Shown: in pieces, positions 37,186 through 56,790 of the stretch
How the letters are laid out: each line of letters opens with the position of its first letter
Position numbering within the stretch: the stretch's first letter is position 1
Source: Escherichia coli
GTDB taxonomy: Bacteria > Pseudomonadota > Gammaproteobacteria > Enterobacterales > Enterobacteriaceae
NCBI RefSeq assembly: GCF_003019035.1
Contig: NZ_CP027447.1
Strand: one strand, 5' to 3'
DNA length: 64,000 nt
Notes under the pieces: model-generated
The model's database searches: none
What the model was told of the DNA's origin: nothing
The model's input: only the letters and a program-made list of their open reading frames with translations
Translations under genes and position numbers: made by a program

Positions 37186-37193
37186 GGTCTTTT

Positions 37194-37227
37194 CTCCCTT
37201 TCAGGGAGAGGGCCGGGGTGAGGGTAA
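37194..37227. repeat. GC-rich palindromic intergenic repeat (Box C-like family; family name uncertain)
   Basis: ctccctttcagggagagggccggggtgagggtaac; shares the CCCTC...GGGAGAGGG.TAGGGTGAGGG core with copies at 40476, 46942 and 56662-56770. Confidence 0.5.
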
Positions 37228-37300
37228 CAACCTGCACCTTTGTACTTTTTAATCAATCTTCGCCGGGGGCCATGCGCTCCCGCTGTTGTGGAGGTTACCC

Positions 37301-38068
37301 ATGTGCGAATTGCTCGGGATGAGCGCCAACGTCCCTACCGATATCTGCTTTAGTTTCACCGGACTTGTACAGCGTGGTGGTGGAACCGGGCCACATAAAG
37401 ATGGCTGGGGCATTACCTTTTACGAAGGTAAAGGCTGTCGCACATTTAAAGATCCGCAACCCAGCTTTAATTCCCCCATCGCCAAACTTGTCCAGGACTA
37501 CCCGATAAAATCCTGTTCGGTGGTGGCTCATATTCGCCAGGCGAATCGGGGAGAGGTGGCGCTGGAAAATACTCACCCGTTTACCCGCGAGTTATGGGGG
37601 CGTAACTGGACTTATGCCCATAATGGACAACTGACGGGCTACAAATCACTGGAAACCGGCAACTTCCGCCCGGTCGGTGAAACCGATAGCGAAAAAGCCT
37701 TTTGCTGGCTCCTGCATAAATTAACGCAGCGTTACCCGCGCACACCGGGCAACATGGCGGCAGTGTTTAAATATATCGCCTCACTGGCGGATGAACTGCG
37801 GCAGAAGGGCGTTTTCAACATGCTGCTTTCTGACGGGCGCTATGTAATGGCGTATTGCTCGACTAATTTACACTGGATCACCCGCCGCGCGCCGTTTGGC
37901 GTGGCAACGTTGCTGGATCAGGATGTGGAAATCGACTTCAGCTCGCAGACCACACCGAATGATGTGGTTACGGTGATTGCGACACAGCCGCTGACGGGCA
38001 ATGAAACCTGGCAAAAGATTATGCCAGGCGAATGGCGCTTATTTTGCCTCGGGGAGCGTGTAGTTTGA
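37301..38068 (+). CDS. yafJ: Class II glutamine amidotransferase-like protein YafJ
   Basis: Starts [10 protein letters not shown] (N-terminal nucleophile Cys after Met); RBS ggagg. Confidence 0.85.
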
Positions 38069-38779
38069 TGCCAGCTGTGGTTGCACAACTTCGTGGCTTA
38101 ACGGCTTGCTGACCACGTAACGGCCATTGACCACAGAAACGGTCGGTGGCTTACGGGTTTGCTCAAAGTAGTCGTAACCTGGCTTCAGCTGCTCCCAGAA
38201 GTCCTTAAAGTTGGAATATTTATGGCGCTTCATATTGGCGTCGGTCATGCGGAACGGGTAAATACTCACTTGCACGCTCGGCTGACCAAAAACCAGCGCA
38301 CCAGTAACGAACTGGAAGATCTCATCAATACCCTGATTGGTCATCGCGTAGCAGCCGATGGAAACACAATCGCCGTGGATCATCAGATATTTCCCTTCAT
38401 AACCATGCGCACGGTCATAGGCATTGGGGAATCCAATATTAATCGCTTTGTAGTAACGGCTGTCTGGTTTTAACTGATTACGCTGGACGCTATAAAACCC
38501 TTCCGGGCTTTTGAAATCGCCCTGACGCTGTTTTGGCCCTAAGCCGCCGGAATATTTACAGATTTTATAGCTGTCGAGCAGTTGATATTGCTCGCCCATT
38601 TTGACGTAGAGATCGAGCGTACGTTCTTCCTTGAAGATCTGGATGTAGACAGGGGATCCCATCAACTGCTGCTTATACTCTTTGCTCACTGGCGTGGTCG
38701 AGCTACTGCTGCCCAGCAAACCGGCAAACGAAACGCACGGGATCAACAACATCGCAAGAATTAATGCGATTTTACGCAT
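38039..38779 (-). CDS. yafK: L,D-transpeptidase-fold protein YafK (DpaA)
   Basis: 246-aa ORF with signal peptide; YkuD-like catalytic region ([14 protein letters not shown]). Confidence 0.85.
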
Positions 38780-38934
38780 ACTGCTTATTCCTTGATAAAA
38801 CGGTTACACACGCCAGGACGGCAAAATGGATCCCAAATCGGAATAGTCTGGATTGGGAAGGCTCACATTATCACCAAAAGAGTTTTACGCAAGCCTGTCG
38901 GCGCAGGGTTTACAAATTTCATCGGCAGCGGGCT

Positions 38935-39213
38935 TTACCCAAAGAGCGCCGCGTGAGTTCCAGTTCTCTCAAATCGTAAAAGTTTATCGGTAAGTTTGTA
39001 AATCAGGATCCAGTCCGGTTCGACATGAGCATCGCGATAACCTTTCCATGAACCTTGCAGCGGGTGGTCTTTATAAACAGCTGGAAGCAGTAAAGTATTA
39101 TTGATAAGAAGCGTCATAAGATATTTCAATTTATTCATATCCTTATGACGCTTTTGTGCAAGTTTTACATCCTTTGAAAATTGTCCCGAGTATTCAATAT
39201 CCCTTTGAATCAT
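38935..39213 (-). CDS. yafQ: Type II toxin YafQ (RelE-family mRNA interferase)
   Basis: 92-aa ORF immediately downstream of dinJ; classic antitoxin-toxin order. Confidence 0.9.
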   Translation of the reverse strand: MIQRDIEYSGQFSKDVKLAQKRHKDMNKLKYLMTLLINNTLLLPAVYKDHPLQGSWKGYRDAHVEPDWILIYKLTDKLLRFERTGTHAALFG

Positions 39214-39215
39214 AT

Positions 39216-39476
39216 TTAAATTCCTAATTTATCAAATAAATCATCGGCGTCTTTGGCCTTATGAACACCAACGCCAGCTTCGCTGTTTTTGATTGATTGA
39301 ATAGTTAATTGATTAGGCTCGCGTAAATCAAACGGCAATGCCTTTTCACGCGCGACTTTTGTGAGGGTTATGCGAACCAGGTCAGAGATGGTCAGCCCCA
39401 TCCCGGCCAGTACGTCCGCCGCCTGATTCTTCAGATCTTCATCGATTCGGGCGCGAACAAACGCGTTAGCAGCCAT
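39216..39476 (-). CDS. dinJ: Antitoxin DinJ
   Basis: 86-aa ORF, RBS aggag; precedes yafQ by 2 bp; LexA box directly upstream. Confidence 0.9.
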   Translation of the reverse strand: MAANAFVRARIDEDLKNQAADVLAGMGLTISDLVRITLTKVAREKALPFDLREPNQLTIQSIKNSEAGVGVHKAKDADDLFDKLGI

Positions 39477-39492
39477 TGGGGTATCTCCTGTG

Positions 39493-39508
39493 CTGTATAT
39501 TTATTCAG
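39493..39508. promoter_or_regulatory. LexA (SOS) box in dinJ promoter
   Basis: CTGTATATTTATTCAG matches CTGT-N8-ACAG with one mismatch, located just upstream of the dinJ RBS. Confidence 0.7.
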
Positions 39509-39685
39509 CTTGAATTGTAGCTCAAATGAGCAACAGCGACAATCCATGAGTAATTTAATAAACGGATGTTTTTACATAATTAACTGAAATATATTTATTA
39601 ATTTTATAATAATGGTTTATTAAGTTTGTTCAGGTACGGGCCGGGATACACTGCAACATCAATGCATGACCAGCCATTATTGAGA

Positions 39686-40435
39686 ATGTCTTTGCCGTCG
39701 ATTCCCTCTTTTGTGTTGTCGGGATTATTGTTGCTTTGCTTGCCGTTTTCTTCATTTGCCAGCGCCACCACATCACATATCTCTTTCAGCTACGCCGCCC
39801 GCCAGCGGATGCAAAACCGTGCGCGTTTATTAAAACAGTACCAAACCCATCTGAAAAAACAGGCCAGCTATATTGTGGAAGGCAATGCCGAAAGCAGAAA
39901 GGCGCTGCGCCAGCACAACCGCGAACAGATAAAACAGCATCCAGAATGGTTTCCTGCGCCGCTCAAGGCGAGTGACAGACGCTGGCAGGCGCTGGCGGAG
40001 AACAACCATTTCTTAAGCAGCGACCATCTACACAACATCACCGAAGTGGCGATTCACCGCCTGGAGCAGCAGCTTGGCAAGCCTTACGTCTGGGGCGGCA
40101 CGCGGCCCGATCAAGGCTTCGACTGTAGCGGGTTGGTTTTTTATGCCTACAACAAGATCCTCGAGGCGAAACTCCCGCGCACGGCTAATGAGATGTATCA
40201 CTACCATCGGGCAACGATTGTGGCGAATAACGACCTGCGCCGGGGAGATTTGCTGTTTTTCCATATTCACAGCCGCGAGATAGCCGATCATATGGGGGTG
40301 TATCTGGGAGACGGTCAGTTTATCGAGTCACCACGTACCGGCGAAACCATTCGGATAAGCCGGTTAGCTGAACCTTTCTGGCAGGATCATTTTTTAGGCG
40401 CGCGGCGGATTTTGACGGAAGAGACGATTTTGTAG
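39686..40435 (+). CDS. yafL: NlpC/P60-family lipoprotein YafL
   Basis: Start at MSLPSIPSFVLSGLLLLCLPFSS; NlpC/P60 catalytic motifs (GFDCSGLVFYAY ... DHMGVYLGDGQFIESP). Confidence 0.85.
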   Translation: MSLPSIPSFVLSGLLLLCLPFSSFASATTSHISFSYAARQRMQNRARLLKQYQTHLKKQASYIVEGNAESRKALRQHNREQIKQHPEWFPAPLKASDRRWQALAENNHFLSSDHLHNITEVAIHRLEQQLGKPYVWGGTRPDQGFDCSGLVFYAYNKILEAKLPRTANEMYHYHRATIVANNDLRRGDLLFFHIHSREIADHMGVYLGDGQFIESPRTGETIRISRLAEPFWQDHFLGARRILTEETIL

Positions 40436-40475
40436 GACGGCAATACTGCGAAAAAGTTAAAGTCGTACACGTTTT

Positions 40476-40503
40476 TCTCCCTCGCCCCAAAGGGGCGAGG
40501 GGA
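40476..40503. repeat. GC-rich palindromic repeat / hairpin at the yafL-lfhA junction
   Basis: tctccctcgccccaaaggggcgagggga perfect stem-loop between convergent yafL and lfhA; same family core as 37194/46942/56662. Confidence 0.45.
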
Positions 40504-40532
40504 CAGTCCGAGACCTTATATAGTCTCCCCCA

Positions 40533-42626
40533 TCAACTCAACGCCCCCATAATCTTCAACTCCAGCTCGTCCGGCACTTCGTTATACGACAGCACATGCA
40601 GCCCCGGCGCAAACAATCTCGCATAGCGCGCCAGCAAAGGGCGCAACTGCGGTGGCACCAGCAGCACAGGGTCTTTCCCCGCCGCTTTCATCTGCTCCTT
40701 CACTTGCGGCATCGTACTCTGGAACTGGTTGAGCATATTCGGGTCAACCGGCACGCTGTCGAGCATCACTTTGCCGGCCTGTTGCGCCTGATTCACCACG
40801 TTGGTCAGCAGATTTTCCAGCTCATTATTCAGCGTATACACCGTCAGCTCCTGCTTGCGAACGAACGGATGGGTAATGCTGCGCCGCAGCGCCAGGCGCA
40901 CATCTGCCGCCAGCAGAATATGATCTTTGGTCACCGCACTACTGGCGACAAGCACGGTGGCGATGGTGACGATATCGCGCAGGGAAACGCCTTCAGTCAG
41001 CAGCGCCCGGTACACTTTCAGCAACTGGCTGTAATTCAGCGCCGCGCTCAAATCCTCCGCCAGGCGCGGTGCCATCGACGACAAACGGTTATGCAGCTGA
41101 GTAATATCGTCATAGTTAAACAAATCAGGAATATAGCTGCGCACAATCTTATTCACATGTGTGGCAATTACGCTGGCGCTGTCGATCACCTGATACCCCA
41201 TATTCAGCGCCTTCGCCTTCTGCGCGGGCTGGATCCAGGTGACCGGCATCCCATATGCCGGGTCATTCCCCAGTACGCCGTCAATCTCGCCGTAGGTTTC
41301 GCTGGAGGGCAGGGCCATCAGTTTATCCGCCGGAATATCCGCTTCATCAGCCTTAATGCCGTTGATGAAAATGGCGTACTGGCTGGGCTTGAGACGGAAG
41401 TTTTCCCGAATACGGATCTCCGGCAGCAGCACGCCGTTACCGTCGGATATCACCTGCCGCACGCCGCGAATCCGCTGGGTGAGCGGGTTCCCCTGCGCTT
41501 TGTCCACCAGCGCCACCAGCTTGTAGCCGAGGCTTAAGCTGATGGGCTCGATCAGCGGAATGGTTTCCCAACTGACCTGTTGCTCGCTGGTTTCGGTGAT
41601 GGTTCGGGTCAGCGTTTCGAGGCTTTTCTCCTCCGCCTCCGCCGCCTGCGGGCGTTTGCTCATCCGCCAGCCGGTAAAGCCAAGCAGGGCGCTGAACAGC
41701 AAAAATGGCAGATGCGGCATCCCCGGCACCACCGCCAGCACAAACATGATCCCGGTGGCGGTGTAGAGCACCGACGGACTTGCCAGCAGCTGGTGGCGCA
41801 CGTCATGGGCGATATCGCCGTTGTCGCTGACGCGGGTGACGATAATTGCCGCCGCGGTGGAGAGCAGCAGGGACGGGATCTGCGCCACCAGCCCGTCGCC
41901 GATGGTCATCAGCACATATTGCTGGAAGGCGGCGTCGGCGCTCAGGTTGTATTTGAAGATCCCGATACAGACGCCGCCGATCAGGTTGATCGCCAGAATC
42001 ATCATCCCGGCGATGGCATCGCCGCGCACAAACTTCGATGCCCCGTCCATCGCGCCGTAGAAATCGGCCTCGCTGGCAACATCTTTACGCCGGGTTTGCG
42101 CCTGCGCCTGGTTGATCAATCCGGCGTTAAGATCGGCGTCAATCGCCATCTGCTTGCCGGGCATCGCGTCCAGGGTAAAGCGGGCAGAAACCTCGGAAAT
42201 ACGCTCGGCCCCTTTGGTGACGACGATAAAGTTGATGATCATCAGGATGATAAACACCACAAAGCCGACGACAAAGTTGCCGCCAATCACCACCTGACCA
42301 AATGACTCAATCACCTTACCCGCCGCGCCTGCGCCGAGATGCCCGTGCAGCAGCACCACGCGCGTAGAAGCAACGTTAAGCGTCAGGCGCATTAGGGTGG
42401 TGATCAGCAAAATGGTCGGGAACAGGCTGAATTCCAGCGGTCGTTTCGCCGACACCGCCACCAGCAGCACCATCACCGCCAGCACAATGTTGAAGGTGAA
42501 CAGAATATCCAGCAACGCAGGCGGCAGCGGCAGAATAACCATCGCCAGAATACACAGGATCACCAGCGGCACGCCGAGATTGCCGCCGCGCAGCAGCGCG
42601 AGGAACGATTTAGTTGTTTTCGCCAT
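40533..42626 (-). CDS. lfhA: Lateral flagellar export gate protein (FlhA homologue)
   Basis: 697-aa ORF, N-terminal polytopic membrane domain plus cytoplasmic domain, FlhA-like. Confidence 0.9.
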   Translation of the reverse strand: MAKTTKSFLALLRGGNLGVPLVILCILAMVILPLPPALLDILFTFNIVLAVMVLLVAVSAKRPLEFSLFPTILLITTLMRLTLNVASTRVVLLHGHLGAGAAGKVIESFGQVVIGGNFVVGFVVFIILMIINFIVVTKGAERISEVSARFTLDAMPGKQMAIDADLNAGLINQAQAQTRRKDVASEADFYGAMDGASKFVRGDAIAGMMILAINLIGGVCIGIFKYNLSADAAFQQYVLMTIGDGLVAQIPSLLLSTAAAIIVTRVSDNGDIAHDVRHQLLASPSVLYTATGIMFVLAVVPGMPHLPFLLFSALLGFTGWRMSKRPQAAEAEEKSLETLTRTITETSEQQVSWETIPLIEPISLSLGYKLVALVDKAQGNPLTQRIRGVRQVISDGNGVLLPEIRIRENFRLKPSQYAIFINGIKADEADIPADKLMALPSSETYGEIDGVLGNDPAYGMPVTWIQPAQKAKALNMGYQVIDSASVIATHVNKIVRSYIPDLFNYDDITQLHNRLSSMAPRLAEDLSAALNYSQLLKVYRALLTEGVSLRDIVTIATVLVASSAVTKDHILLAADVRLALRRSITHPFVRKQELTVYTLNNELENLLTNVVNQAQQAGKVMLDSVPVDPNMLNQFQSTMPQVKEQMKAAGKDPVLLVPPQLRPLLARYARLFAPGLHVLSYNEVPDELELKIMGALS

Positions 42627-43749
42627 CCAGTTTAAGCACCTCTTTGGGAATGGAAATATGTCTGTTCAGAGCCGGGCGCGGCTGTGCGCCCTCGCGCCAG
42701 TGTTTCATTTGCAGGACGTAGGTCAGAACGTGGGCGATAGCCCGGTAAAGCTGAAACGGAATTTGCTGGTTCACCTGGGTGGTGTAGTAAACCGAGCGCG
42801 CCAGTCGCGGGAACTCGACCACTTCCACCTGATTCTCAGTGGCGACCTGGCGAATATAGAGGGCGATTTCATCGGTGCCTTTCGCCACCACAAACGGCGC
42901 GGCGGCGCGAGACTGGTCATACTGCAACGCCACGGCGTAGTGGATCGGGTTGGTGATCACCACGTTGGCTTTCGGCACCACTTTGCGAATTTGCCCCATC
43001 GCCAGTTGCCGTTGCAGCCGCCGCACGCGCGCCTTCACTTCCGGCTTGCCTTCCTGATTTTTGTACTCTTCTTTCAGCTCCTGTTTGGTCATCTTCAGCC
43101 CTTTGGTAAACAGGGCTTTCGCCAGCGGTACGTCGATCAGCGCGAAGAAGATAAACAGGATGACAAAGTTGCGCATCACGCTGGCGTAGAGCGATAAACC
43201 ATCGTTAATTGCCAGTTTGAACGGCAGCGCCTGCAGGCCGAGAAAGGCGGCAAAGTTATTGCGCAGGCTTACCCACAGCATCACCAGTATCACCACCGAC
43301 TTCACCGTCATCTTTCCCGTTTCCGCCAGATGCTCGCTGGAAAACAGCCGCCCAATCCCTTTTAACGGACTGATTTTGCTGAAATCAGGGAGGATTTTTT
43401 TCGGCAGAAACAGCCAGCCGCCAGGCACCAGCGAGGAGAGCAGTGCGGCGGCGGGCATCGGCAGCAAGGTAAGAATAAACTTGCCGAGAATTAACAGGTG
43501 ATGGCGCAGAAACTGGCCGATCACATCCGGGTTATTAATCTCCTGCGCGTACTGATGCACGCTGATAAAACTCTCGCGCACAAAATCGGCATACCACGGG
43601 AAGCTGCTGGAGATCACCACAAATGCCGCAAACAGGCTCGCCGCCAGCCCCATATCCTTCGAGCGCGGCAGTTGCCCCTCTTCACGCGCTTTACGCAGCT
43701 TTTGCGCCGAGGGTTTCTCTGTTTTTTCTTCGCTGCTGCTATCCGCCAT
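42610..43749 (-). CDS. lfhB: Lateral flagellar export switch protein (FlhB homologue)
   Basis: 379-aa ORF; autocleavage-type motif NPIH (NPTH variant) in VVITNPIHYAVAL; overlaps lfhA start. Confidence 0.9.
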   Translation of the reverse strand: MADSSSEEKTEKPSAQKLRKAREEGQLPRSKDMGLAASLFAAFVVISSSFPWYADFVRESFISVHQYAQEINNPDVIGQFLRHHLLILGKFILTLLPMPAAALLSSLVPGGWLFLPKKILPDFSKISPLKGIGRLFSSEHLAETGKMTVKSVVILVMLWVSLRNNFAAFLGLQALPFKLAINDGLSLYASVMRNFVILFIFFALIDVPLAKALFTKGLKMTKQELKEEYKNQEGKPEVKARVRRLQRQLAMGQIRKVVPKANVVITNPIHYAVALQYDQSRAAAPFVVAKGTDEIALYIRQVATENQVEVVEFPRLARSVYYTTQVNQQIPFQLYRAIAHVLTYVLQMKHWREGAQPRPALNRHISIPKEVLKLDGENN

Positions 43750-44521
43750 AGTGACCTTTCAGCGCGTCGAGTTGCTGCAACACAAAATTCGCCAGATGCA
43801 GATAGTGATCCGGCAGGTTGTAGAGCAGGGTGGCGAAGCAAACCAGCCCCGCCAGCATGTTGATGGGAAAGCCGAGCGAAAAAAGGTTCAGCGGCGGCGC
43901 AATGCGGTTAAGCAGGCCAAAGCAGCCCTGCACAATCAGCATGATAAAAGTGGTCGGCAGCGCCAGCAGTGATGCGGACGCCAGTACCCAGCTAAAGGCC
44001 AGCGCGATGGTGCGCAGGGTTTGCGGATGCAGCGCGTTGCCAATCGGCCAGTAGGTGAAGCCCTTATACAGCACGCTTACCAGCAGCAGATGCCCGTCCA
44101 TGGCAAAAAACAGCAGGATCGCGTAGACGTTAATTAATTCCGCCAGCACGGTTGTTGATGCGCCGCTGCTCGGGTCGTTCATCACCGCCATGCTCATCCC
44201 CATATTGAACGAGAGAATTTGCCCGGCCAGTTGCAGCGCCAGAAACAGAAACTGAAACATCAGCCCGAACAACATGCCCCATAAGATTTGCTCCACCGTC
44301 AGGATCAAACTGTTGAGCGAGAGCAAATCATGGGGAATGGGATGGGGGATCAACGGCGTGATGATGATTGCCAGCGCCAGCGACAAAATAATCCGCACGC
44401 GCACGGTCAGGGCGCTGTTATCCAGCACCGGCACATAGCGCAGAAACGCCATAATGCGCACGAAGGGAAACCACAGCCCCAGCGCCAGATCCATCAGTTG
44501 CGTAACGTCGCTTGTGCGCAT
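43739..44521 (-). CDS. lfiR: Lateral flagellar export protein (FliR homologue)
   Basis: Polytopic membrane protein; start set at MRTSDVTQLMD adjacent to the lfiQ stop. Confidence 0.8.
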   Translation of the reverse strand: MRTSDVTQLMDLALGLWFPFVRIMAFLRYVPVLDNSALTVRVRIILSLALAIIITPLIPHPIPHDLLSLNSLILTVEQILWGMLFGLMFQFLFLALQLAGQILSFNMGMSMAVMNDPSSGASTTVLAELINVYAILLFFAMDGHLLLVSVLYKGFTYWPIGNALHPQTLRTIALAFSWVLASASLLALPTTFIMLIVQGCFGLLNRIAPPLNLFSLGFPINMLAGLVCFATLLYNLPDHYLHLANFVLQQLDALKGHYGG

Positions 44522-44522
44522 C

Positions 44523-44795
44523 TTAATGCACCAGCAGGGCGGCCTGGGTAAACAGGTGAATGCAGAGATCATGCAACTGGATAATCATCCATTTGCCGCA
44601 CACGCCCAGCACCACCAGCGTGACAATCAGCCTCGGCAAAAAGCTCAGGGTCTGTTCGTTAATCTGCGTCACCGCCTGGAACACGCTCACCAGCAGGCCG
44701 ACCAGCAGGCTTGGCACCACCAGTACCGAAACCAGCAAAATCACTACTTTAATGCCGCTGGCGACAATGTCGGCGGCTACGTCTACGGTCAACAT
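44523..44795 (-). CDS. lfiQ: Lateral flagellar export protein (FliQ homologue)
   Basis: 90-aa two-helix membrane protein. Confidence 0.85.
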   Translation of the reverse strand: MLTVDVAADIVASGIKVVILLVSVLVVPSLLVGLLVSVFQAVTQINEQTLSFLPRLIVTLVVLGVCGKWMIIQLHDLCIHLFTQAALLVH

Positions 44796-44797
44796 AA

Positions 44798-46762: not shown

Positions 46763-46941
46763 GGCTTACTTTCTCTGCTGTAATGGTATGGGTGTTTCTG
46801 TGCACGCAAATCCGGCTGTGACACAAGGTGAGGTATTAAATAGAGGGGGAGTGAAAGGGGCAAATTATTAATAGGGTGAAAAAATAATTAATCGATTAAT
46901 TGCTTAATGGGAGTTATTTTCGCCAATCAGTCTGCGGTCTG

Positions 46942-46981
46942 TCCCCTCGCCCCATCCGGGGAGAGGGTTAGGGTGAGGGGG
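46942..46981. repeat. GC-rich palindromic repeat (Box C-like family) in the lfiM / lafK divergent region
   Basis: tcccctcgccccatccggggagagggttagggtgaggggg. Confidence 0.5.
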
Positions 46982-47134
46982 CATCACAGATGTCGAAATT
47001 AACAGTATTAATATCTAACTAATTGTTTACCATCAAATAATATTTTTATTATCGTTTAATTCGAACTTGTTAATCCCGCCGGTGATACGCTTCAGAACAT
47101 CCTGTTTTCTGTCGCTACTGATATCGTTCACCCT

Positions 47135-48121: not shown

Positions 48122-48135
48122 CCCGGAAGTTAAAA

Positions 48136-48477
48136 ATGAGCATTACCACAATCAACAGCACCATGCAGGCGCAAATCATGCAGGACGTGCAGCGGATGCA
48201 GGCCAACGCCCAGGCACCGGTGCTGCCCGCCATGACCTTCAGTTCCACCGACCCGGACGTTTCGTTTAACCGCATTATGAGCGGTGCGCTCGGTCATGTT
48301 GACCAGTTCCAGCAGGTGGCGGAGCAGCAGCAAACGGCTGTCGACACGGGCAAAAGTGATGACCTGGCAGGGGCGATGATCGCCAGCCAGCAGGCGTCGC
48401 TCTCGTTCTCCGCGCTGGTTCAGGTGCGCAACAAAATCGCCACCGGATTTAACGATCTGATGAGTATGTCGATCTAA
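48136..48477 (+). CDS. lfiE: Lateral flagellar hook-basal body protein (FliE homologue)
   Basis: 113-aa ORF; FliE-like C-terminus. Confidence 0.8.
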   Translation: MSITTINSTMQAQIMQDVQRMQANAQAPVLPAMTFSSTDPDVSFNRIMSGALGHVDQFQQVAEQQQTAVDTGKSDDLAGAMIASQQASLSFSALVQVRNKIATGFNDLMSMSI

Positions 48478-48481
48478 CCCT

Positions 48482-50128
48482 ATGAATGAAAAAATAAAGA
48501 AGTTAACCCAGGTGTTTCCGGCGTTTCGACTGCGTCTTGCAGATAACAAACGCTGGGCGCTGATGGCGGGAGTGGGGCTTGCCGTGGCGGCGACGGCGAT
48601 TATCGTTAGCGTGCTGTGGACCGGTAATCGCGGCTACGTCTCGCTCTACGGACGCCAGGAAAATCTGCCCGTGTCGCAGATTGTCACCGTGCTGGACGGC
48701 GAAAAGCTCAGCTACCGCATCGACCCGCAAAGCGGGCAGATTCTGGTGCCGGAAGATGAACTGTCGAAAACGCGTATGACCCTTGCCGCGAAAGGCGTGC
48801 AGGCGATCTTGCCCAGCGGCTACGAGCTGATGGACAAAGACGAAGTGCTCGGCAGCAGCCAGTTCGTGCAGAACGTGCGCTACAAACGCAGCCTCGAAGG
48901 GGAGCTGGCGCAGAGCATTATGTCGCTGGACGCGGTGGAGAGCGCGCGGGTGCATCTGGCGCTCAACGAAGAGAGCTCGTTTGTGGTCAGCGATGAGCCG
49001 CAAAACAGCGCCTCGGTGGTGGTGCGTCTGCATTACGGCGCGAAGCTGAATATGGACCAGGTGAACGCCATTGTGCATCTGGTTTCCGGCAGCATTCCGG
49101 GGCTGCACGCCAGCAAAGTTAGCGTCGTCGATCAGGCGGGAAATCTGCTGACCGACGGCATTGGCGCGGGCGAAGCGGTTTCAGCCGCTACCCGTAAACG
49201 CGATCAGATCCTCAAAGATATTCAGGACAAAACCCGCGCCAGCGTGGCGAACGTGCTGGATTCGCTGGTCGGCAGCGGGAATTACCGCGTCAGCGTCATG
49301 CCGGATCTCGACCTCAGTAATATCGATGAAACTCAGGAACACTACGGCGACGCGCCGAAAATCAACCGCGAAGAAAACGTGCTGGACAGCGATACCAATC
49401 AGGTGGCGATGGGTGTGCCCGGTTCGCTCAGTAACCGTCCGCCGATTGCAGCGAATCAGATGACCAACGGTACGGAAGAAAACCGCTCGCCGGAAGCCCT
49501 TTCGAAACACAGCGAAAGCAAGCGCGATTACTCTTACGACCGCAGCGTCCAGCATATTCAGCATCCCGGCTTTGCGGTGAAACGCCTTAACGTGGCGGTG
49601 GTGCTCAATCAAAACGCTCCGGCGCTGAAAAACTGGAAGCCGGAGCAGACCACGCAACTGACCGCGTTGCTGAACAATGCCGCCGGGATCGACGTCCAGC
49701 GCGGTGACAATCTCACCTTATCGCTGCTTAACTTTGTGCCGCAGGCGGTGCCGGTCGAACCAATTATTCCGCTGTGGAAAGACGACAGCGTGCTGGCCTG
49801 GGTGCGGCTGATTGGCTGCGGCCTGCTGGCGCTGTTGTTGCTGTTCTTTGTGGTGCGCCCGGTAATGAAACGGCTGACGGCGGTACGTGCACCGGTTATC
49901 ACACCAGAACCGGAAGCCGTCAGCGAACCGTGGATCGCCATGCCGGAAGAGGAGCGCAAAAACGTCGATCTGCCGTCGCTACCCGGCGATGACAGCCTGC
50001 CTTCGCAGAGTTCCGGCCTCGAAGTAAAACTCGAGTTCCTGCAAAAACTGGCCATGAGCGACACCGATCGCGTAGCCGAAGTTCTCAGACAATGGATCAC
50101 CAGCAATGAGCGAATTGACAACAAATAA
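48482..50128 (+). CDS. lfiF: Lateral flagellar MS-ring protein (FliF homologue)
   Basis: 548-aa ORF with N-terminal TM helix, periplasmic ring domains and a second TM helix near the C-terminus. Confidence 0.85.
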   Translation: MNEKIKKLTQVFPAFRLRLADNKRWALMAGVGLAVAATAIIVSVLWTGNRGYVSLYGRQENLPVSQIVTVLDGEKLSYRIDPQSGQILVPEDELSKTRMTLAAKGVQAILPSGYELMDKDEVLGSSQFVQNVRYKRSLEGELAQSIMSLDAVESARVHLALNEESSFVVSDEPQNSASVVVRLHYGAKLNMDQVNAIVHLVSGSIPGLHASKVSVVDQAGNLLTDGIGAGEAVSAATRKRDQILKDIQDKTRASVANVLDSLVGSGNYRVSVMPDLDLSNIDETQEHYGDAPKINREENVLDSDTNQVAMGVPGSLSNRPPIAANQMTNGTEENRSPEALSKHSESKRDYSYDRSVQHIQHPGFAVKRLNVAVVLNQNAPALKNWKPEQTTQLTALLNNAAGIDVQRGDNLTLSLLNFVPQAVPVEPIIPLWKDDSVLAWVRLIGCGLLALLLLFFVVRPVMKRLTAVRAPVITPEPEAVSEPWIAMPEEERKNVDLPSLPGDDSLPSQSSGLEVKLEFLQKLAMSDTDRVAEVLRQWITSNERIDNK

Positions 50129-51116
50129 GAGCAACAGCTACCTGGAACAGGCGGCGATCCTGCTACTGTGCCTTGGCGAAGAAGCGGCGGCGACGGTGAT
50201 GCAAAAACTCAGCCGCGAAGAAGTGGTGCGCCTGAGCGAAAACATGGCGCGGCTTTCCGGTGTCAAAACCAGCATGGCGCGCAAAGTGATCAACAACTTC
50301 TTTGATGAGTTCCGCGAACAGAGCGGGATCAACGGCGCGTCGCGATCTATGTTGCAGGGCATTCTCAACAAAGCGCTAGGCACCGAGATCGCCAGCAGCG
50401 TGATCAACGGCATCTACGGCGATGAGATCCGCTCGCGGATGGCGCGCCTGCAATGGGTGGAACCACGCCAGCTGGCGATGCTGATCTCCGAAGAACATCT
50501 GCAATTGCAGGCGGTGTTCCTCGCGTTTCTGACGCCGGAAATCTCGGCAGCGGTGCTTTCGTATCTCAACGAATCGGTGCAAAACGAAATTCTCTATCGG
50601 GTGGCGAAACTCAACGACGTCAACCGCGACGTGGTGGATGAACTGGACAGGCTGATCGAACGCGGCCTGTCGGTGCTTTCGGAGCACGGCTCGAAGGTGA
50701 AAGGCATCAAACAGGCGGCGGATATCGTCAACCGCTTCCAGGGCAACCAGCAGGTGATCCTCGACCAGATGCGCGAGCGCGACGAAGACGTGCTGGAGCA
50801 GTTGCAGGATGAGATGTACGACTTCTTTATTCTCAGCCGCCAGAACGAAGAGGTGCGCCGTCGCCTGCTCGACGAAGTGCCGATGGAAGACTGGGCGGTG
50901 GCGCTGAAAGGCACCGAAGCTCTGCTGCGTCGCTCCATTTACGCGGTAATGCCAAAACGTCAGGTGCAGCAACTGGAAGCGATCACTGCGCGCCTGGGGC
51001 CGGTGCCGGTCAGCCGTATCGAACAGATCCGCCGCGAAATCATGGGCATTGCCCGTGAACTGGAAGAGGCGGGCGAAATTCAGCTACAGCTCTTTGCGGA
51101 ACAGACGGCGGAGTAA
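50106..51116 (+). CDS. lfiG: Lateral flagellar rotor/switch protein (FliG homologue)
   Basis: 336-aa ORF immediately after lfiF. Confidence 0.85.
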   Translation: MSELTTNKSNSYLEQAAILLLCLGEEAAATVMQKLSREEVVRLSENMARLSGVKTSMARKVINNFFDEFREQSGINGASRSMLQGILNKALGTEIASSVINGIYGDEIRSRMARLQWVEPRQLAMLISEEHLQLQAVFLAFLTPEISAAVLSYLNESVQNEILYRVAKLNDVNRDVVDELDRLIERGLSVLSEHGSKVKGIKQAADIVNRFQGNQQVILDQMRERDEDVLEQLQDEMYDFFILSRQNEEVRRRLLDEVPMEDWAVALKGTEALLRRSIYAVMPKRQVQQLEAITARLGPVPVSRIEQIRREIMGIARELEEAGEIQLQLFAEQTAE

Positions 51117-51119
51117 CCC

Positions 51120-51830
51120 ATGACCATTGAAACACTGCGCGGGCGCTATCGCCTGCATCGTTTCCCGCCGCGCCAGCGTGCGGTGACCGGAGAACCGCTC
51201 ACCGCCAGCATCAGCGCCGCCGATTACCAGCGCCAGTTGATGGACGGTTTTCAGGAAGGGCTGCAAAAAGGGTTTGCTCAGGGAATGACCGAAGGCCAGG
51301 AGCAGGGCTTTAGCGAAGGTCATCAACAAGGTTTTGCCGAGGGGCGACGCCAGGGCTACACCGAAGGCAGCCTCGCCGGGCAGCAGGAAGGGCGCAAACA
51401 GTTTGTTGACGCGGCACAGCCGCTGGAAGCCATCAGCGGAAAAGTGAACGACTTCCTCGCCCATATCGAACGTAAACAGCGGGAAGATTTGCTGCAACTG
51501 GTGGAAAAAGTCACCCGCCAGGTGATCCGCTGCGAACTGGCGCTGCAACCGACGCAGTTGCTGGCGCTGGTGGAAGAGGCACTGGCGGCCTTCCCGGCAA
51601 TGCCGGAGACCCTCCAAGTGATGCTAAGTACGGAAGAATTTAACCGCTTGCGCGACGCGGTGCCGGAAAAGGTCAGCGAATGGGGGCTGACGCCTTCGCC
51701 GGATCTGCCGCCGGGTGAATGCCGGGTGATTACCGATAAATCTGAACTGGATATCGGCTGCGAGCACCGCCTTGAACAGTGCATGACCGCGCTGAAAGAA
51801 ACACTCACGCCGGAGTCGCAGGGTGAGTGA
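51120..51830 (+). CDS. lfiH: Lateral flagellar export protein (FliH homologue)
   Basis: 236-aa ORF with Gln/Glu-rich coiled region (GFQEGLQKGFAQGMTEGQEQGFSEGHQQGFAEG) directly upstream of the ATPase gene. Confidence 0.75.
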   Translation: MTIETLRGRYRLHRFPPRQRAVTGEPLTASISAADYQRQLMDGFQEGLQKGFAQGMTEGQEQGFSEGHQQGFAEGRRQGYTEGSLAGQQEGRKQFVDAAQPLEAISGKVNDFLAHIERKQREDLLQLVEKVTRQVIRCELALQPTQLLALVEEALAAFPAMPETLQVMLSTEEFNRLRDAVPEKVSEWGLTPSPDLPPGECRVITDKSELDIGCEHRLEQCMTALKETLTPESQGE

Positions 51831-53160
51831 TTTTTCCGCTTTCGATAACGCCCTGCGCTCGCTGGAGTCGATCCCGCTGGCCCGCGTCGCCGGGCGGCTG
51901 GTGCGCCTTAATGGCATCCTGCTGGAGAGCGTCGGCTGCCCGCTAATGACCGGGCAGCTGTGTCGCATCGAAAGCGCCAATCACACGCTGATCGACGCGC
52001 AGGCCGTGGGCTTTAATCGCGACATCACTTACTTAATGCCGTTTAAACAACCGGTCGGCCTGATGGCAGGCGCGCGCGTCTTCCCGGAAGAAAAAGCCCA
52101 CGACATCCTGATTGGCGAAAGCTGGTTAGGCCGCGTGGTTAACGGCCTCGGCGAACCGCTGGATGGCAAAGGCCGCCTGAACGGCAACGACCTTCTGTCG
52201 CCGCTGCCGCCGTCGGTTAATCCCTTAACCCGCCGTTCGGTGGACGAACCGCTGGACGTGGGCGTGAAAGCGATCAACGGCCTGCTGACCATCGGCAAAG
52301 GCCAGCGTGTCGGGCTGATGGCGGGCAGCGGCGTCGGGAAAAGCGTGCTGCTGGGGATGATCACCCGCCAGACCAAAGCCGACATTGTGGTGGTCGGGTT
52401 GATTGGCGAACGCGGGCGCGAAGTAAAAGAGTTTATCGACCACTCGCTGGGCGCGGACGGGCTGGCAAAGTCTATCGTCGTCGTCGCGCCCGCCGATGAA
52501 TCGCCGCTGATGCGCCTGAAAGCCACCGAACTGTGCCACTCCATCGCTGCCTGGTTTCGCGACCGCGGGCATCACGTTTTACTGCTGGTGGATTCCCTGA
52601 CCCGTTACGCGATGGCCCAGCGGGAAATAGCTCTCTCGCTCGGCGAACCGCCCGCCACCAAAGGCTATCCGCCGTCGGCATTCGGCATGATCCCCAAACT
52701 GGTCGAGAGCGCAGGCAACAGCGAAAGCGCGGGATCGATGACCGCCATCTACACCGTGTTGGCGGAAGGCGACGATCAGCAAGATCCGATTGTCGACTGC
52801 GCCCGTGCGGTGCTGGACGGGCATATCGTATTAACCCGCAAACTGGCGGAAGCGGGGCACTATCCGGCTATTGATATCGGCCAGTCGATCAGCCGTTGCA
52901 TGAATCAGGTGACCAGCCTGGAACATCAGCAATCCGCCCGTGCGTTAAAGCAAAACTACGCCGCGTATATGGAGATCAAACCGCTGATCCCGCTCGGCGG
53001 CTACGTGGCAGGTGCCGACGCCAGCGTCGACAAAGCGGTAAAAATGTTCCCGGCTATCGAGCGTTTTTTGCGCCAGGAGATGTGCGAACCCGCCTCCCTG
53101 GAACTGGTGCAAAGCCGCCTGCAAATTCTCTTTCCTGGCGTCAAAAAGGCAGAACAGTAA
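51823..53160 (+). CDS. lfiI: Lateral flagellum-specific ATP synthase (FliI homologue)
   Basis: 445-aa ORF (GTG start) with Walker A GSGVGKS and F1/T3SS-ATPase-like core. Confidence 0.9.
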   Translation: MSDFSAFDNALRSLESIPLARVAGRLVRLNGILLESVGCPLMTGQLCRIESANHTLIDAQAVGFNRDITYLMPFKQPVGLMAGARVFPEEKAHDILIGESWLGRVVNGLGEPLDGKGRLNGNDLLSPLPPSVNPLTRRSVDEPLDVGVKAINGLLTIGKGQRVGLMAGSGVGKSVLLGMITRQTKADIVVVGLIGERGREVKEFIDHSLGADGLAKSIVVVAPADESPLMRLKATELCHSIAAWFRDRGHHVLLLVDSLTRYAMAQREIALSLGEPPATKGYPPSAFGMIPKLVESAGNSESAGSMTAIYTVLAEGDDQQDPIVDCARAVLDGHIVLTRKLAEAGHYPAIDIGQSISRCMNQVTSLEHQQSARALKQNYAAYMEIKPLIPLGGYVAGADASVDKAVKMFPAIERFLRQEMCEPASLELVQSRLQILFPGVKKAEQ

Positions 53161-53162
53161 CC

Positions 53163-53597
53163 ATGCGACAAATCATCGACACCCTGGCGCAGTTGCAGCG
53201 CCTGCGGGATAAATCGGTCAAAGACAAAACCGTCGAGCTGGCAAAGCAAAAACAGATTTGTGCGGGTTATGACAACAATATCAAAGCATTAGGCTACCTG
53301 GTGGAGAAAACATCTGCGGGCGCGGCAGCGTCGGTGGAATCGCTGAAAAACGTCAGCGGTTACAAAGGTACGCTGCGCAAGGTGATCGCCTGGCAGGAGC
53401 AGGAAAAAACGCTAGCTAGCATCAAAGCCACGCGAATGCAGAAAAACCTCACGGCGGCGGCGTGCGAAGAGAAAGTGGTGGCCCTGACGCTGGACGACAA
53501 ACGCCGCGAGCAGCAAGAAAGTGCCACGGCGAAAGCGCAAAAAGCGGTGGATGACATCGCCGTCCAGTGCTGGCTGCGGCATAAGTTAGCGGAGTAG
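53163..53597 (+). CDS. lfiJ: Lateral flagellar export chaperone (FliJ homologue)
   Basis: About 144 aa from MRQIIDTLAQLQRLRDKS; position after the FliI homologue. Confidence 0.7.
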   Translation: MRQIIDTLAQLQRLRDKSVKDKTVELAKQKQICAGYDNNIKALGYLVEKTSAGAAASVESLKNVSGYKGTLRKVIAWQEQEKTLASIKATRMQKNLTAAACEEKVVALTLDDKRREQQESATAKAQKAVDDIAVQCWLRHKLAE

Positions 53598-53599
53598 CC

Positions 53600-54004
53600 A
53601 TGAAAACGGTCATCACCTTCGGCACCTTCGATGTGTTTCATGTCGGTCATCTGCGCCTTTTACAACGCGCCCGCACGCTGGGCGAACGGCTGCTGGTCGG
53701 CGTATCGTCCGACGCCTTAAATATCGCCAAAAAGGGCAGAGCACCGGTTTACCCTCAGGATGACCGCATGGCGATTATCGCCGGGCTGGCGTGCGTGGAT
53801 GGCGTATTTCTCGAAGAATCGCTGGAGCAGAAAGCGGAGTATTTGCGCGGGTACAGTGCGGATATTTTGGTGATGGGCGATGACTGGGCAGGGAAGTTTG
53901 ATAGCTTTGCGTATATTTGTGAGGTGGTGTATTTCCCCCGTACGCCGTCGGTGTCGACGACGGGGATTATTGAGGTGATTAGGGGGAAATCAGCAACCTA
54001 CTGA
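53600..54004 (+). CDS. Glycerol-3-phosphate cytidylyltransferase (TagD-like) encoded at the end of the lafK-lfiEFGHIJ operon
   Basis: 134-aa ORF starting 3 bp after lfiJ; nucleotidyltransferase HxGH motif (FGTFDVFHVGHLRLL) and C-terminal MGDDWAGKFD...CEVVYFPRTPSVSTTGI, closely paralleling Bacillus TagD as recalled. Confidence 0.8.
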   Translation: MKTVITFGTFDVFHVGHLRLLQRARTLGERLLVGVSSDALNIAKKGRAPVYPQDDRMAIIAGLACVDGVFLEESLEQKAEYLRGYSADILVMGDDWAGKFDSFAYICEVVYFPRTPSVSTTGIIEVIRGKSATY

Positions 54005-54052
54005 TTTAATTCCCGAAGTGAGAGAAGATGATGCCGTTTGGCTATGTTAAAT

Positions 54053-54155
54053 ATGTTTAAAAAATCGCGTTTTTTCGACATATCCCCAAAACATGTCGAT
54101 GGCATAAACGTATTCCAACGACATGTTTAAAAATCGCATTTTATCGACATATCCC
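54053..54155. repeat. Two about 34-bp imperfect direct repeats, each with internal dyad symmetry, between convergent TagD-like and glycosyltransferase genes
   Basis: atgtttaaaaaatcgcgttttttcgacatatcccc (54053-54087) and atgtttaaaaatcgcattttatcgacatatccc (54123-54155); the second overlaps the glycosyltransferase stop codon. Confidence 0.6.
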
Positions 54156-56612
54156 TGACGATTCCTTGCCCGCCAACGTCTCCACAATCACCATCGCCGC
54201 CCGTTCTCCCGCCTTGCCATCCATAAACGCATCGCAATAGTGATGACGAATCTTCGTAAGCCGCGCCTGCACCGCACCCCAGTCAAACGCCTCTGACAAC
54301 AAATAACGCAGTTCCGCAACATCATGAGCCACCGGCAATATTTCGCGGATTCGCTGGTCGGCGCTCTCCGGCGTGGAGTAGCTTTTCTCGCCGTCGAGCA
54401 ATTCACTCATGCCCGGAAAGTCGAGCAGGATCACCCGCTTATCGACATGGATAGCATCGAAAATAAAGCCGCTGTTATCGGTCAGCACGTAATCGGCCTT
54501 TGCCAGCAGCGCCAGCGTGTGGCGGGCGGAGTCGGTGCGCTGTTTTAAATGTCTGCGCGCGAGTGCCAGCGATGCAGTTTCTTCCGGGCGCGAGCAGGTG
54601 CCGTGGTGCAGTTTGCAAATCAGGTTCACATCATCGCTTAAGCGCCCCAATTTTTCTGCCCAGTGGGGCAGGGAGCTTAATGCGCCAAACGTTGGGGCGT
54701 AGAGCACCGTAGGTTTACGGGAATCGGGTTGAATATTTTCTGGCAGAATGCGGTCAAACGTGCCGTTATGCCAGGCGTCGAAGCGCGGGTTGCCGACTGC
54801 TTTTGCATTGCCGAAATGCGCCAGCGCCCGCTGGCTGTAGTGGCTGTAACACAAAATGCGCTGATAAAAACGGTTCCAGTCGGCGTGGTTCCACGTCTCT
54901 TTGGCTAAGCCGTACATGGCGCGAACGTTCACCGCTGCCAGGCCATTGAGCGCGGGCGTGTGGTAGGGGCTGACCAGGCATTTCACCCGCTGACCGTGTG
55001 CCTGCATTTCAGATAAGCGCATTCCTTTAAGCTGCGGATCGTCGATGCTTTTTAGCGTCTCCAGCATTTCATCCAGAAACGGTTTAAACACGCGGTCATT
55101 GATCACCAGTGTGCAGCTCTGCCCCTGCGCCTGTAGAGCGGTGATGATTGGGCGATACAGCGAGTAGTGGAATGAGGTTTCCATAAAAAAGCCGATGGTG
55201 TTGGCGATGGGGAATGCGGATGGTTTTGTAACTACGGGTAACTTATTGAAATAGTGACTAATGTTGTCGGTCACTTTTTTCTCGATGTCACTAAAGCCCG
55301 GTCGCTGATAACTAAGGCTCGGGTAACAGGCCAGCCATTTGTCGGCGCGCAGCAGCGGCTGCCAGCACTCTTCCAGCGAGTGCTCACCGTTGCCCATCTG
55401 CTGTGCCAGTTGCGGGTAGTAGCGGCTGTTCACCAGATAAGCACACACTTTGCGGCAGTCCCGCGCGTGCACCAGCCCCGGCAAACTTTTTAGCATCGTT
55501 CCCTGCGAAATTTCGCCGCCAAGGATCATCACCTGCCAGGGAATTTTCGCCAGGCTCGCCAGCAGCGTGTTCAGCACCTGAATATGTTTCTCCTGCTTGA
55601 GAATAACCGCGTCATCTTCCAGCAGCAGATAGTTTTGCCAGCCGTGCTGTTGCGCCAGGCGCAGCGCCTGCAAGTGCGACAGGCGGCGGCCCCGTTGACC
55701 GTTTTCATCTTCACAGGCGGCAAGGCGGGTGATTTTCTCGGGCGGAATATGCAGCAGTGCCAGTTCTTCACGGATCTGTTGTAAGCGATCCGGGCGTTTA
55801 TCCAGATTGATCAATACGACCTGATCGATCGCCTGATGGTTGATCGCCTGGTGATGAGTGGCGTTATGCAGACTCAGATAAGCATTGCGGAGCAGCGGAT
55901 CGCGGACGATATCCGTAAGCGCCGCGTTTACTGGCGTGCTGGCCCCGAGAATAAAGTCTTTATCAAAGGTGTTGTGGCTGTGCGAGATACACAAAATCGT
56001 GCGCTCGCCGGGCAGTTGTAGCGGGTTAGCGCTGAAATTGTCGGTGAAACTTTTCTCTTCGCCTAAATTGCAATCGTCATCGTAGCGGTGCTTTTTCAGG
56101 TAGTTACGGTGATAGCAAAAGGTGCCGTTGAGGATGTTATGCGGGCCGAAGCTGCGGCTTTGAAAGATGCGATTGATGTGGCTGTACCAGATGGGGATCT
56201 GGTCGGAACCGGAGATGAGCGCCCGGTTTTTTTGCATCATAGCGATGGTGTAAGAGATTTTATCTGCCGGGTAGTAGTCGTCATCGTCCATGCAGAGGAT
56301 GTATTCGCCGCGCGCCAGTTCGTTGAGCATATTGCGTTTTTTGCCCAGCGGCAGTTTTTCCGGGTGATGGATGTAGCGGATGTTGAAGGCTTCCTGTGTG
56401 CCATTGGTCAGGCGGTCGATGATGTGTTGATGGCTTTGCGGGGAATCGTCGAGGATGATGAGTTCGCGGCGGTCTGCCGGGTAGTCCTGATAGCGGTACA
56501 TATAAAGCAGGTACGGCAGGAATGCGCTGCGGTTCCAGGTTGGCGTGACGACGCTGACGAACGGTTTTTCGCGCTGGGTGGCGAGTGTTTTGATAATGGT
56601 TGGTGTTGGCAT
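54141..56612 (-). CDS. Large multidomain glycosyltransferase: N-terminal GT2-like, central GT25-like and C-terminal TagB/TagF-like CDP-glycerol glycerophosphotransferase domains
   Basis: N-terminus VSVVTPTWNRSAFL...ILDDSP...CMDDDDYY (GT-A/DxD); central VVLINLDKRPDRLQQI (GT25-like); C-terminus TVLYAPTFG...VLTDNSGFIFDAI (TagF-like). Start set at MPTPTIIK; the ORF-track extension to 56684 runs through a repeat element and is uncertain. Confidence 0.7.
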   Translation of the reverse strand: MPTPTIIKTLATQREKPFVSVVTPTWNRSAFLPYLLYMYRYQDYPADRRELIILDDSPQSHQHIIDRLTNGTQEAFNIRYIHHPEKLPLGKKRNMLNELARGEYILCMDDDDYYPADKISYTIAMMQKNRALISGSDQIPIWYSHINRIFQSRSFGPHNILNGTFCYHRNYLKKHRYDDDCNLGEEKSFTDNFSANPLQLPGERTILCISHSHNTFDKDFILGASTPVNAALTDIVRDPLLRNAYLSLHNATHHQAINHQAIDQVVLINLDKRPDRLQQIREELALLHIPPEKITRLAACEDENGQRGRRLSHLQALRLAQQHGWQNYLLLEDDAVILKQEKHIQVLNTLLASLAKIPWQVMILGGEISQGTMLKSLPGLVHARDCRKVCAYLVNSRYYPQLAQQMGNGEHSLEECWQPLLRADKWLACYPSLSYQRPGFSDIEKKVTDNISHYFNKLPVVTKPSAFPIANTIGFFMETSFHYSLYRPIITALQAQGQSCTLVINDRVFKPFLDEMLETLKSIDDPQLKGMRLSEMQAHGQRVKCLVSPYHTPALNGLAAVNVRAMYGLAKETWNHADWNRFYQRILCYSHYSQRALAHFGNAKAVGNPRFDAWHNGTFDRILPENIQPDSRKPTVLYAPTFGALSSLPHWAEKLGRLSDDVNLICKLHHGTCSRPEETASLALARRHLKQRTDSARHTLALLAKADYVLTDNSGFIFDAIHVDKRVILLDFPGMSELLDGEKSYSTPESADQRIREILPVAHDVAELRYLLSEAFDWGAVQARLTKIRHHYCDAFMDGKAGERAAMVIVETLAGKESSGICR

Positions 56613-56661
56613 GGTGTTTGGGTGAGTTAATGGGTGAATGTGATGAATGTGCGTGCTGATG

Positions 56662-56770
56662 CCCTCACCCCGACCCTCTCCCACAGGGAGAGGGAGAAAA
56701 CCAGCGCCGATTTTAACACCGTGCTCGATCGGTTCCCTCGCCCCTTTGAGGAGAGGGTTAGGGGGAGGGG
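56662..56770. repeat. Pair of inverted GC-rich repeat units (Box C-like family)
   Basis: ccctcaccccgaccctctcccacagggagaggga (56662-56697) and ccctcgcccctttgaggagagggttagggggagggg (56735-56770) in opposite orientation. Confidence 0.5.
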
Positions 56771-56790
56771 AAAAGCGCGCACAGAGCGAC

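Follow-up and report, generated by a model that had tools for sequence, protein, structure and literature searches.

Intergenic repeats around the Flag-2 locus of an Escherichia coli chromosome are BoxC elements and their decay products in strain-variable spacers

The BoxC family of intergenic repeats has been described since the 1990s, has been characterised biophysically and has already been linked to local genome variability. Its literature reportedly includes Bergler in 1992, Bachellier in 1999 and Hoyne and Maher in 2000 and 2002. REP/BIME repeats have a mobilising enzyme, the transposase RayT, and play roles in mRNA 3' stabilisation and in the binding of gyrase and IHF, whereas we know of no mobilising enzyme and no role of this kind for BoxC; REPINs are said, after Bertels and Rainey in 2011, to be REP doublets that form hairpins. 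The motif was first described as BoxC, was rediscovered as PIT and was later named TMECO, all three being one and the same (Holder et al. 2015, PMC4666352), and its published consensus is CCCTCNCCC-N3-6-GGGNGAGGG-N3-GGGNGAGGG (PMC4666352). The second loop distinguishes two subtypes, type A with TTA and type B with CCG or TCG, inverted doublets always consist of one A and one B unit, and circular dichroism (CD) and nuclear magnetic resonance (NMR) of type A and type B oligonucleotides have demonstrated a triplex in vitro (PMC4666352). Here we describe five repeats in a 64 kb segment of the E. coli chromosome (contig NZ_CP027447.1; the whole stretch that was analysed is called the window hereafter), which lie around the beginning and within the first part of the Flag-2 lateral-flagellar locus. 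They are BoxC elements and their decay products, and the family is thus one already known. We consider it very probable that they are elements without demonstrated function, housed in unstable spacers, and that they are neither terminators nor the seams at which gene modules were assembled.

Copies were sought by a fuzzy three-block scan over all 64 kb, which recovered only these five elements, all of them between 37.2 and 56.8 kb and all intergenic. The published consensus has two exact matches in the window, at 46944-46979 (+) and 56662-56694 (-), where 0.00 are expected, and the sequence at 56735-56769 (+) differs from it by 1 mismatch; similarly, the 22-mer GGGAGAGGGTTAGGGTGAGGGG, with up to 3 mismatches allowed, was found 3 times against 0.00 expected. 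The second loops conform to the published subtypes, being TTA in copies 3 and 5 (type A), CCG in copy 1 and TCG in copy 4 (both type B), and the doublet at 56648-56784, which joins a B unit on the minus strand to an A unit on the plus strand, matches the published A+B pairing rule. A sequence-only reading of the window had called the family Box C-like, and the name is right, as the copies fit the published BoxC consensus (PMC4666352). All four positions at which that reading had placed repeats do hold them, and the gene context it gave agrees with the annotation; the core that it held to be shared by all is complete at 46942-46981 and nearly so at 56733-56770, but incomplete at the other sites. 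No Rfam family matched the copies: only a tRNA gene at 137-210 (67.7 bits), upstream of the studied region, reached the gathering score, and a permissive scan of 36.5-57.5 kb returned sub-threshold eukaryotic families only. The REP core (GCC[G/T]GATGCG[G/A]CG..., with the GTAG tetranucleotide) is absent at all five copies. Compared with the described BoxC/PIT/TMECO elements we see no essential difference, since the three-block consensus, the second loops, the A+B inverted doublets, the strictly intergenic position, the ~14-23 copies per genome, the local spacer variability and the collapse known as the 'palindrome effect' are the same. Copy 4 has a core identical to that of K-12 TMECO no. 20, and copy 1 shares its loop with no. 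10; K-12 differs in that the loci of the window are without BoxC there (REPs or a deletion being found instead), and two of the window copies are degenerate.

Comparison of the window copies with those of K-12 and other strains showed that the unit reaches past the 34-37-nt core, which is consistent with the classical length of 56 bp. The 5' flank of type B units is GTTTTCT and that of type A units is CGGAC.GTC or GATCGGTC, these being common to the window, K-12 and other loci, and the 3' flank of both types at the same loci approximates to ..CAGCGCGCAC. We picture the BoxC unit as some 56-60 bp holding one C-rich and two G-rich blocks, of which a single strand could fold to a GC hairpin of 9-10 bp; on the G-rich DNA strand the third block may then lay itself into the hairpin and yield a purine-motif intramolecular triplex, as shown in vitro by others.

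The window, which is 98-100% identical to complete E. coli genomes, has the gene order fadE, gmhA (lpcA), yafJ, dpaA, yafQ-dinJ and yafL, and then the Flag-2 locus (lfhA ... lfiM / lafK ... glycosyltransferase, lysine-N-methylase, lfgN ...). Copy 1 (37190..37237, plus strand) is of type B and lies 9 nt past the gmhA stop codon. In its core at 37196-37224 blocks 2 and 3 match exactly but only TCTCCC is left of block 1, giving the layout TTTTCT, TCTCCC, TTTCA, GGGAGAGGG (37204-12), CCG, GGGTGAGGG (37216-24) and the 3' flank TAACAACCTGCAC. At the gmhA site of strain GPEC856 the type-B element is intact, and the copy in the window differs from it by the loss of 6 nt, one TCTCCC of a tandem pair; we count copy 1 as a member of the family because of this intact allele, and by this comparison it is a type-B element shortened by a slippage deletion of 6 nt. 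Copy 2 (40471..40512, assigned to neither strand) lies in the convergent yafL/lfhA spacer and is a BoxC derivative without the third block. Block 1 and its complement form a perfect 10-bp hairpin there, CCCTCGCCCC-AAA-GGGGCGAGGG (40479-40501), with an RNA fold of -29 to -31 kcal/mol; the 5' flank of this copy is that of type B on the plus strand (GTTTTTCT) and that of type A on the minus strand (CTCGGACTGTC). Since these two flanks are the outer ends of a tail-to-tail A/B pair, we read copy 2 as probably such a doublet that has collapsed with removal of its interior; collapse to a plain hairpin has been described for TMECO doublets as the 'palindrome effect' (PMC4666352, Fig. S6).

Copy 3 (46935..46989, plus strand), in the divergent lfiM/lafK spacer, is an exact match to the consensus and is of type A with the usual single stem mismatch ('A mm'). 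Its layout is CGGTCTGTC, CCCTCGCCC (46944-52), CATCCG, GGGAGAGGG, TTA, GGGTGAGGG (to 46979) and the 3' flank GGCATCACAG, and it folds with -36.8 kcal/mol (z -3.9). The remaining two copies form a head-to-head doublet in the spacer between the glycosyltransferase and lysine-methylase genes. Its left half, copy 4 (56648..56702, minus strand), is a type B unit whose core at 56662-56694 is again an exact consensus match, flanked on the minus strand by GGTTTTCT on the 5' side and CATCAGCACGCACA on the 3' side; a 60-nt stretch of it, flanks included, recurs with 95% identity at other loci in thousands of genomes, mrcB-hrpB being one such place. The right half, copy 5 (56723..56784, plus strand), is of type A, and its core at 56735-56769 carries the one mismatch; it reads GCTCGATCGGTT, CCCTCGCCC (56735-43), CTTTG, AGGAGAGGG, TTA, GGGGGAGGG (to 56769) and the 3' flank GAAAAGCGCGCACAG, and two substitutions separate it from the intact copy of strain 19SZHZ663Rt. 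The doublet spacer at 56703..56722 is the loop of a palindrome of ~135 nt, and the fold of the whole doublet (56642-56790) has -81 kcal/mol on one strand and -84 on the other (z ~ -7.5). In the convergent spacer between the glycosyltransferase gene and an FAD-synthase-like gene lies a 30-nt direct repeat, TTTAAAAAATCGCGTTTTTTCGACATATCCC, at 54057-54086 and 54126-54155; its copies are 90% identical and 69 nt apart, and the second overlaps the glycosyltransferase stop codon.

All 6 BoxC-bearing spacers that were examined, four in the window and two at K-12 loci, proved to be polymorphic among 5,426 complete E. coli genomes, and the repeat-free fadE-gmhA spacer, which served as control and is only 600 nt from copy 1, was intact in 5,423 of them. 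In the gmhA-yafJ spacer the BoxC allele is found in 328 of the 5,426 genomes, and elsewhere one REP (O157) or a BIME (K-12-like) is found. The yafL-lfhA spacer (97 bp, 40436-40532) is a slot of varying gene content, where the window allele occurs in 130 of the 5,426 genomes and the others have REP arrays (CFT073), among them a triple one, rayT flanked by REPs (K-12), hicAB, or hicB alone. At lfiM-lafK 57 of 1,284 Flag-2-positive genomes have the BoxC allele, the alternative being a BIME in either orientation. The doublet allele of the glycosyltransferase/lysine-methylase spacer is present in 722 genomes, including the window and 19SZHZ663Rt, and one unit or none is found elsewhere: E7-1N7 has a single type-A unit with its flanks, in the orientation opposite to that of the type-A copy of the window and without a type-B partner, and Ecol_867 and JNEC-KY173 have no BoxC but a 46-bp spacer with a small GCCGG hairpin. 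At the two K-12 loci, tauD-hemB and adk-hemH, BoxC alleles occur in 3,601 and 2,917 genomes, respectively, and give way elsewhere to a short unrelated spacer bearing a hairpin. The notion that BoxC always alternates with REP was rejected, the alternatives at tauD-hemB, adk-hemH and the glycosyltransferase spacer being short unrelated hairpin-bearing sequences. In strain MB10 a 51-nt insertion just upstream of the tauD-hemB BoxC repeats the 5' flank and the start of block 1 (GGACGGTCACCTCG...), which suggests a local partial duplication. At the four sites of the window the variation is confined to the spacer and the flanking genes are kept. TMECO loci have been reported to be far more variable than control intergenic sites (PMC4666352), and the polymorphism seen here, taken with the invariant control, agrees with that link; thus, local hypervariability of the spacers around BoxC is supported, as had been published previously.

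A census of the same genomes, with a 48-nt BoxC copy as the query, found 69,710 places in 5,407 of the 5,426, with a median of 14 and a range of 1-26 per genome; plasmids carry only 25 of these places, and among the census matches listed none overlaps an annotated feature. This fits the description of the family as dispersed, wholly intergenic and present in ~15-30 copies on an E. coli chromosome. Measured against this median, the four to five copies within 20 kb (37190-56784) amount to a density far above the genome average (post hoc Poisson P ~4e-7). In K-12, TMECO nos. 3 and 4 (K-12 282101 and 289246) lie inside the annotated cryptic prophage CP4-6, a location which sits uneasily with the published remark of no association with mobile elements. 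BoxC is essentially absent from 50,697 phage records; E. coli-type matches in two Campylobacter phage records, MG065686.1 and MG065691.1 (93.5% over 46 nt), may be assembly contamination. In a plasmid collection it was found mostly on megaplasmids of Rhizobium, Sinorhizobium and Azospirillum and was essentially absent from small plasmids. Together, the phage and plasmid BLAST results argue against carriage on mobile replicons in enterobacteria. The motif is present in at least 120 IMG/VR contigs, with E. coli-like flanks in only 2 of 146 motifs among the matches listed, and these matches say little on mobility in E. coli. The exact three-block motif also occurs in distant lineages with loops and flanks of their own, namely in Mitsuaria, a Methylomirabilota metagenome-assembled genome and Contendobacter, which are examples among the matches listed and not a taxonomic census. 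Mitsuaria chitosanitabida has ~214 such hairpins in 0.91 Mb, 177 of them with a perfect third block, this block being bimodal, either intact or absent; its copies have the first loop GCTTGC and the 3' flank TCTTCGGG, and many stand as inverted pairs.

The palindromic and slippage-prone structure of BoxC, with its internal direct and inverted symmetry, would promote slippage, hairpin-mediated deletion and inversion, and spacers that hold BoxC would therefore diversify quickly; the element itself, for which to our knowledge no cellular function has been demonstrated, would be structured DNA, neutral or selfish, which persists only where an intergenic gap tolerates it. The changes noticed at this locus are the 6-nt slippage deletion, the doublet read as collapsed to a hairpin, point decay, and a flipped unit and replacement of the whole spacer by REP/BIME or a short hairpin. 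Fragile sites of H-DNA, purine-motif triplex and G-quadruplex type likewise have homopurine/homopyrimidine mirror-like blocks and G3 runs tied to local deletions and rearrangements, but BoxC is a dispersed, sequence-conserved repeat family and not a low-complexity tract, and its non-B structure in vivo is putative. That DNA structure causes the instability of the spacers is something we infer, because footprinting with dimethyl sulfate (DMS) detected no triplex in vivo (PMC4666352). This finding weighs against our reading, and so do several others. Most alternative alleles are wholesale replacements of 60-160 nt and not simple deletions; homologous recombination within the flanking genes could have reshuffled alleles of long standing, BoxC being carried along as a passenger. 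Nor does our reading account for the clustering of four to five copies in 20 kb. Furthermore, the exact retention of the three blocks across distant phyla (Mitsuaria, the Methylomirabilota genome, Contendobacter, the alpha-proteobacterial megaplasmids) hints at constraint or at mobilising machinery, which 'neutral junk' does not explain. BoxC may be the cause of the variability or may simply lie in tolerant, fast-turning spacers.

The sequence-only reading had proposed that the repeats mark module junctions, as recombination substrates in the assembly of the locus or as terminators. In the former role they would delimit gene modules such as Flag-2 and the glycosyltransferase cassette and help to assemble or delete them, which we regard as extremely improbable. 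The polymorphism of all BoxC-bearing spacers, the alternative cargo of the yafL/lfhA spacer (rayT, hicAB or REP arrays) and the published observation that TMECO loci are more rearranged than controls (PMC4666352) would fit such a role, but the end points of the Flag-2 deletion do not. The K-12 lfhA remnant matches the window over 40538-42236 and continues in lafU, the two alignments overlapping by 3 nt, so that the common deletion ends inside lfhA and lafU, at a 3-nt microhomology, and its left end at 42236 is 1.7 kb from the nearest copy; the annotations of CFT073, strain 61, strain 98198 and FDAARGOS_497 show the same lfhA'-'lafU fusion, and the loss of Flag-2 has been described as a deletion within these two reading frames (PMC6993521). 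The hairpin allele at yafL/lfhA occurs with and without Flag-2, as in FDAARGOS_497, where Flag-2 is deleted and yet the yafL-lfhA spacer, hairpin included, is 100% identical to that of the window. Moreover, the glycosyltransferase and methylase genes are kept with two, one or no copies beside them, none of the alternative cargo alleles at yafL/lfhA keeps BoxC sequence at its borders, and the second half of Flag-2, as inspected in strain E7-1N7, has several REP cores and no BoxC. Comparison of the junctions in strains with and without Flag-2 bore out the variability of the spacers, but the breakpoints of the deletion do not fall at the repeats. Likewise, of the proposed placement at module junctions it holds that all four sites are strain-variable and the fadE-gmhA spacer is not, but the variation lies inside the spacers and the flanking genes stay. 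Between 36 and 60 kb the window has 11 non-coding gaps of more than 50 nt, all of them between operons, and 4 contain BoxC; the repeats appear to mark junctions because in this gene-dense region the only gaps of that size are those between operons. The view of BoxC as recombination substrate is therefore largely refuted for this locus, and that BoxC mediated the gain or the loss of Flag-2 or of the glycosyltransferase gene is not supported. It is also decidedly unlikely that the copies act in RNA, as intrinsic terminators or as REP-like hairpins protecting the 3' ends of gmhA, yafL/lfhA and the lysine-methylase gene, although stable RNA hairpins are predicted (single copies at -29 to -37 kcal/mol, the doublet at about -81), a stop codon precedes three of the four sites by 9-45 nt, and at 5 of the 6 loci the alternative allele has another stable hairpin in place (REP/BIME or a small GC hairpin), hairpin replacing hairpin as interchangeable 3' stabilisers would. 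Rho-independent terminators have the same GC-rich stem-loop soon after the stop codon as is seen at three sites, but they have a U-tract, and no T-run follows any of the hairpins on either strand. A consensus terminator and promoter scan made no call at any copy, with totals not above those of shuffled sequences, the sole terminator-like call nearby being a weak hairpin with GTTTTCT at 56703-56722 on the minus strand. Copy 3 lies between the divergent promoters of lfiM and lafK and so at the 3' end of neither gene, both orientations are found among the copies, reporter tests showed PIT elements to have neither promoter nor terminator activity and to leave RNA polymerase unaffected (Hoyne and Maher, summarised in PMC4666352), and in K-12 there is no orientation or distance bias relative to open reading frames (PMC4666352). 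A role of the BoxC copies as terminators is thus not supported; a passive effect on mRNA decay, by which they would protect the 3' ends of upstream mRNAs, is possible but would be a by-product.

The spacers that BoxC shares with REP/BIME bring up a further alternative. Three slots (37186-37245, 40436-40532 and 46860-47010) hold BoxC in some E. coli strains and REP/BIME in others, and when REP cores were placed by pattern in K-12 (NC_000913.3) they were found, among the 8 spacers of more than 50 nt in the homologous 11.5 kb, only in the BoxC slots. We treat this slot sharing as a lead and not as a result. REP/BIME repeats (PU) are, like BoxC, short GC-rich intergenic palindromes that stand singly or as inverted doublets, are polymorphic among strains and use the same three spacers, but they are unrelated in sequence (GCCGGATGCGGCG... 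versus CCCTCNCCC/GGGNGAGGG) and have hundreds of copies versus ~14 for BoxC. One could hold that BoxC units, the A+B inverted doublets above all, are non-autonomous mobile elements of a REPIN-like kind which some enzyme moves into hairpin-tolerant slots and which compete there with REP/BIME, and we think this unlikely. In its favour, a stretch of ~60 nt, flanks included, is nearly the same in copies at unrelated loci, one and the same site (the doublet spacer) is polymorphic for presence and orientation, 3 of the 4 slots hold REP/BIME in other strains, and the motif has expanded in particular lineages with loops and flanks of their own, as in Mitsuaria, and reaches into IMG/VR contigs. As in REPINs, the A+B doublet is an inverted pair that would fold into one long hairpin (~135 nt, -81 kcal/mol). 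Against this, no target-site duplication, terminal inverted repeats or clean empty site was seen at any of the 6 loci, BoxC has no known linked transposase or RAYT-like gene and gives no evidence of recent duplication, E. coli genomes have few copies, within a narrow range (1-26), sequenced phages and small plasmids are essentially without it, and the BoxC alleles of the three adjacent spacers may have come together as a single linked haplotype and not independently. If true, mobility would account for the same spacer having BoxC in one lineage and REP in another, with flips or exchange in place, it would call for a mobilising activity not yet recognised or for a common route of insertion directed at hairpins, and it would explain the conservation of the three blocks across phyla. 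Lastly, the G-rich half GGGAGAGGGTTAGGGTGAGGG, with four G3 runs and 3-nt loops, could work as a G-quadruplex in DNA or RNA. This sequence and its variants fit the canonical G3N3G3N3G3N3G3, and a motif of four runs of at least 3 G with loops of 1-7 nt is predicted at copies 1, 3 and 4. We find a working quadruplex exceedingly improbable all the same, since NMR and CD of the full oligonucleotide point to a triplex and not to a quadruplex (PMC4666352), the adjacent C-rich block competes by Watson-Crick pairing, the G-rich tail is missing from copy 2, and in copy 5 one of the runs carries a G-to-A change.

We therefore retain the reading of the five sequences as BoxC elements and their decay products in spacers prone to change. 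For annotation this means that BoxC hairpins are not to be called terminators, nor to be used as markers of island boundaries. The locus provides a compact natural illustration of BoxC decay, in which slippage, doublet collapse, inversion and alternation with REP/BIME are seen side by side. If the sharing of slots with REP/BIME is general, it bears on how BoxC spreads and on why the three blocks have been kept in lineages ranging from Enterobacteria to Burkholderiales and Methylomirabilota.

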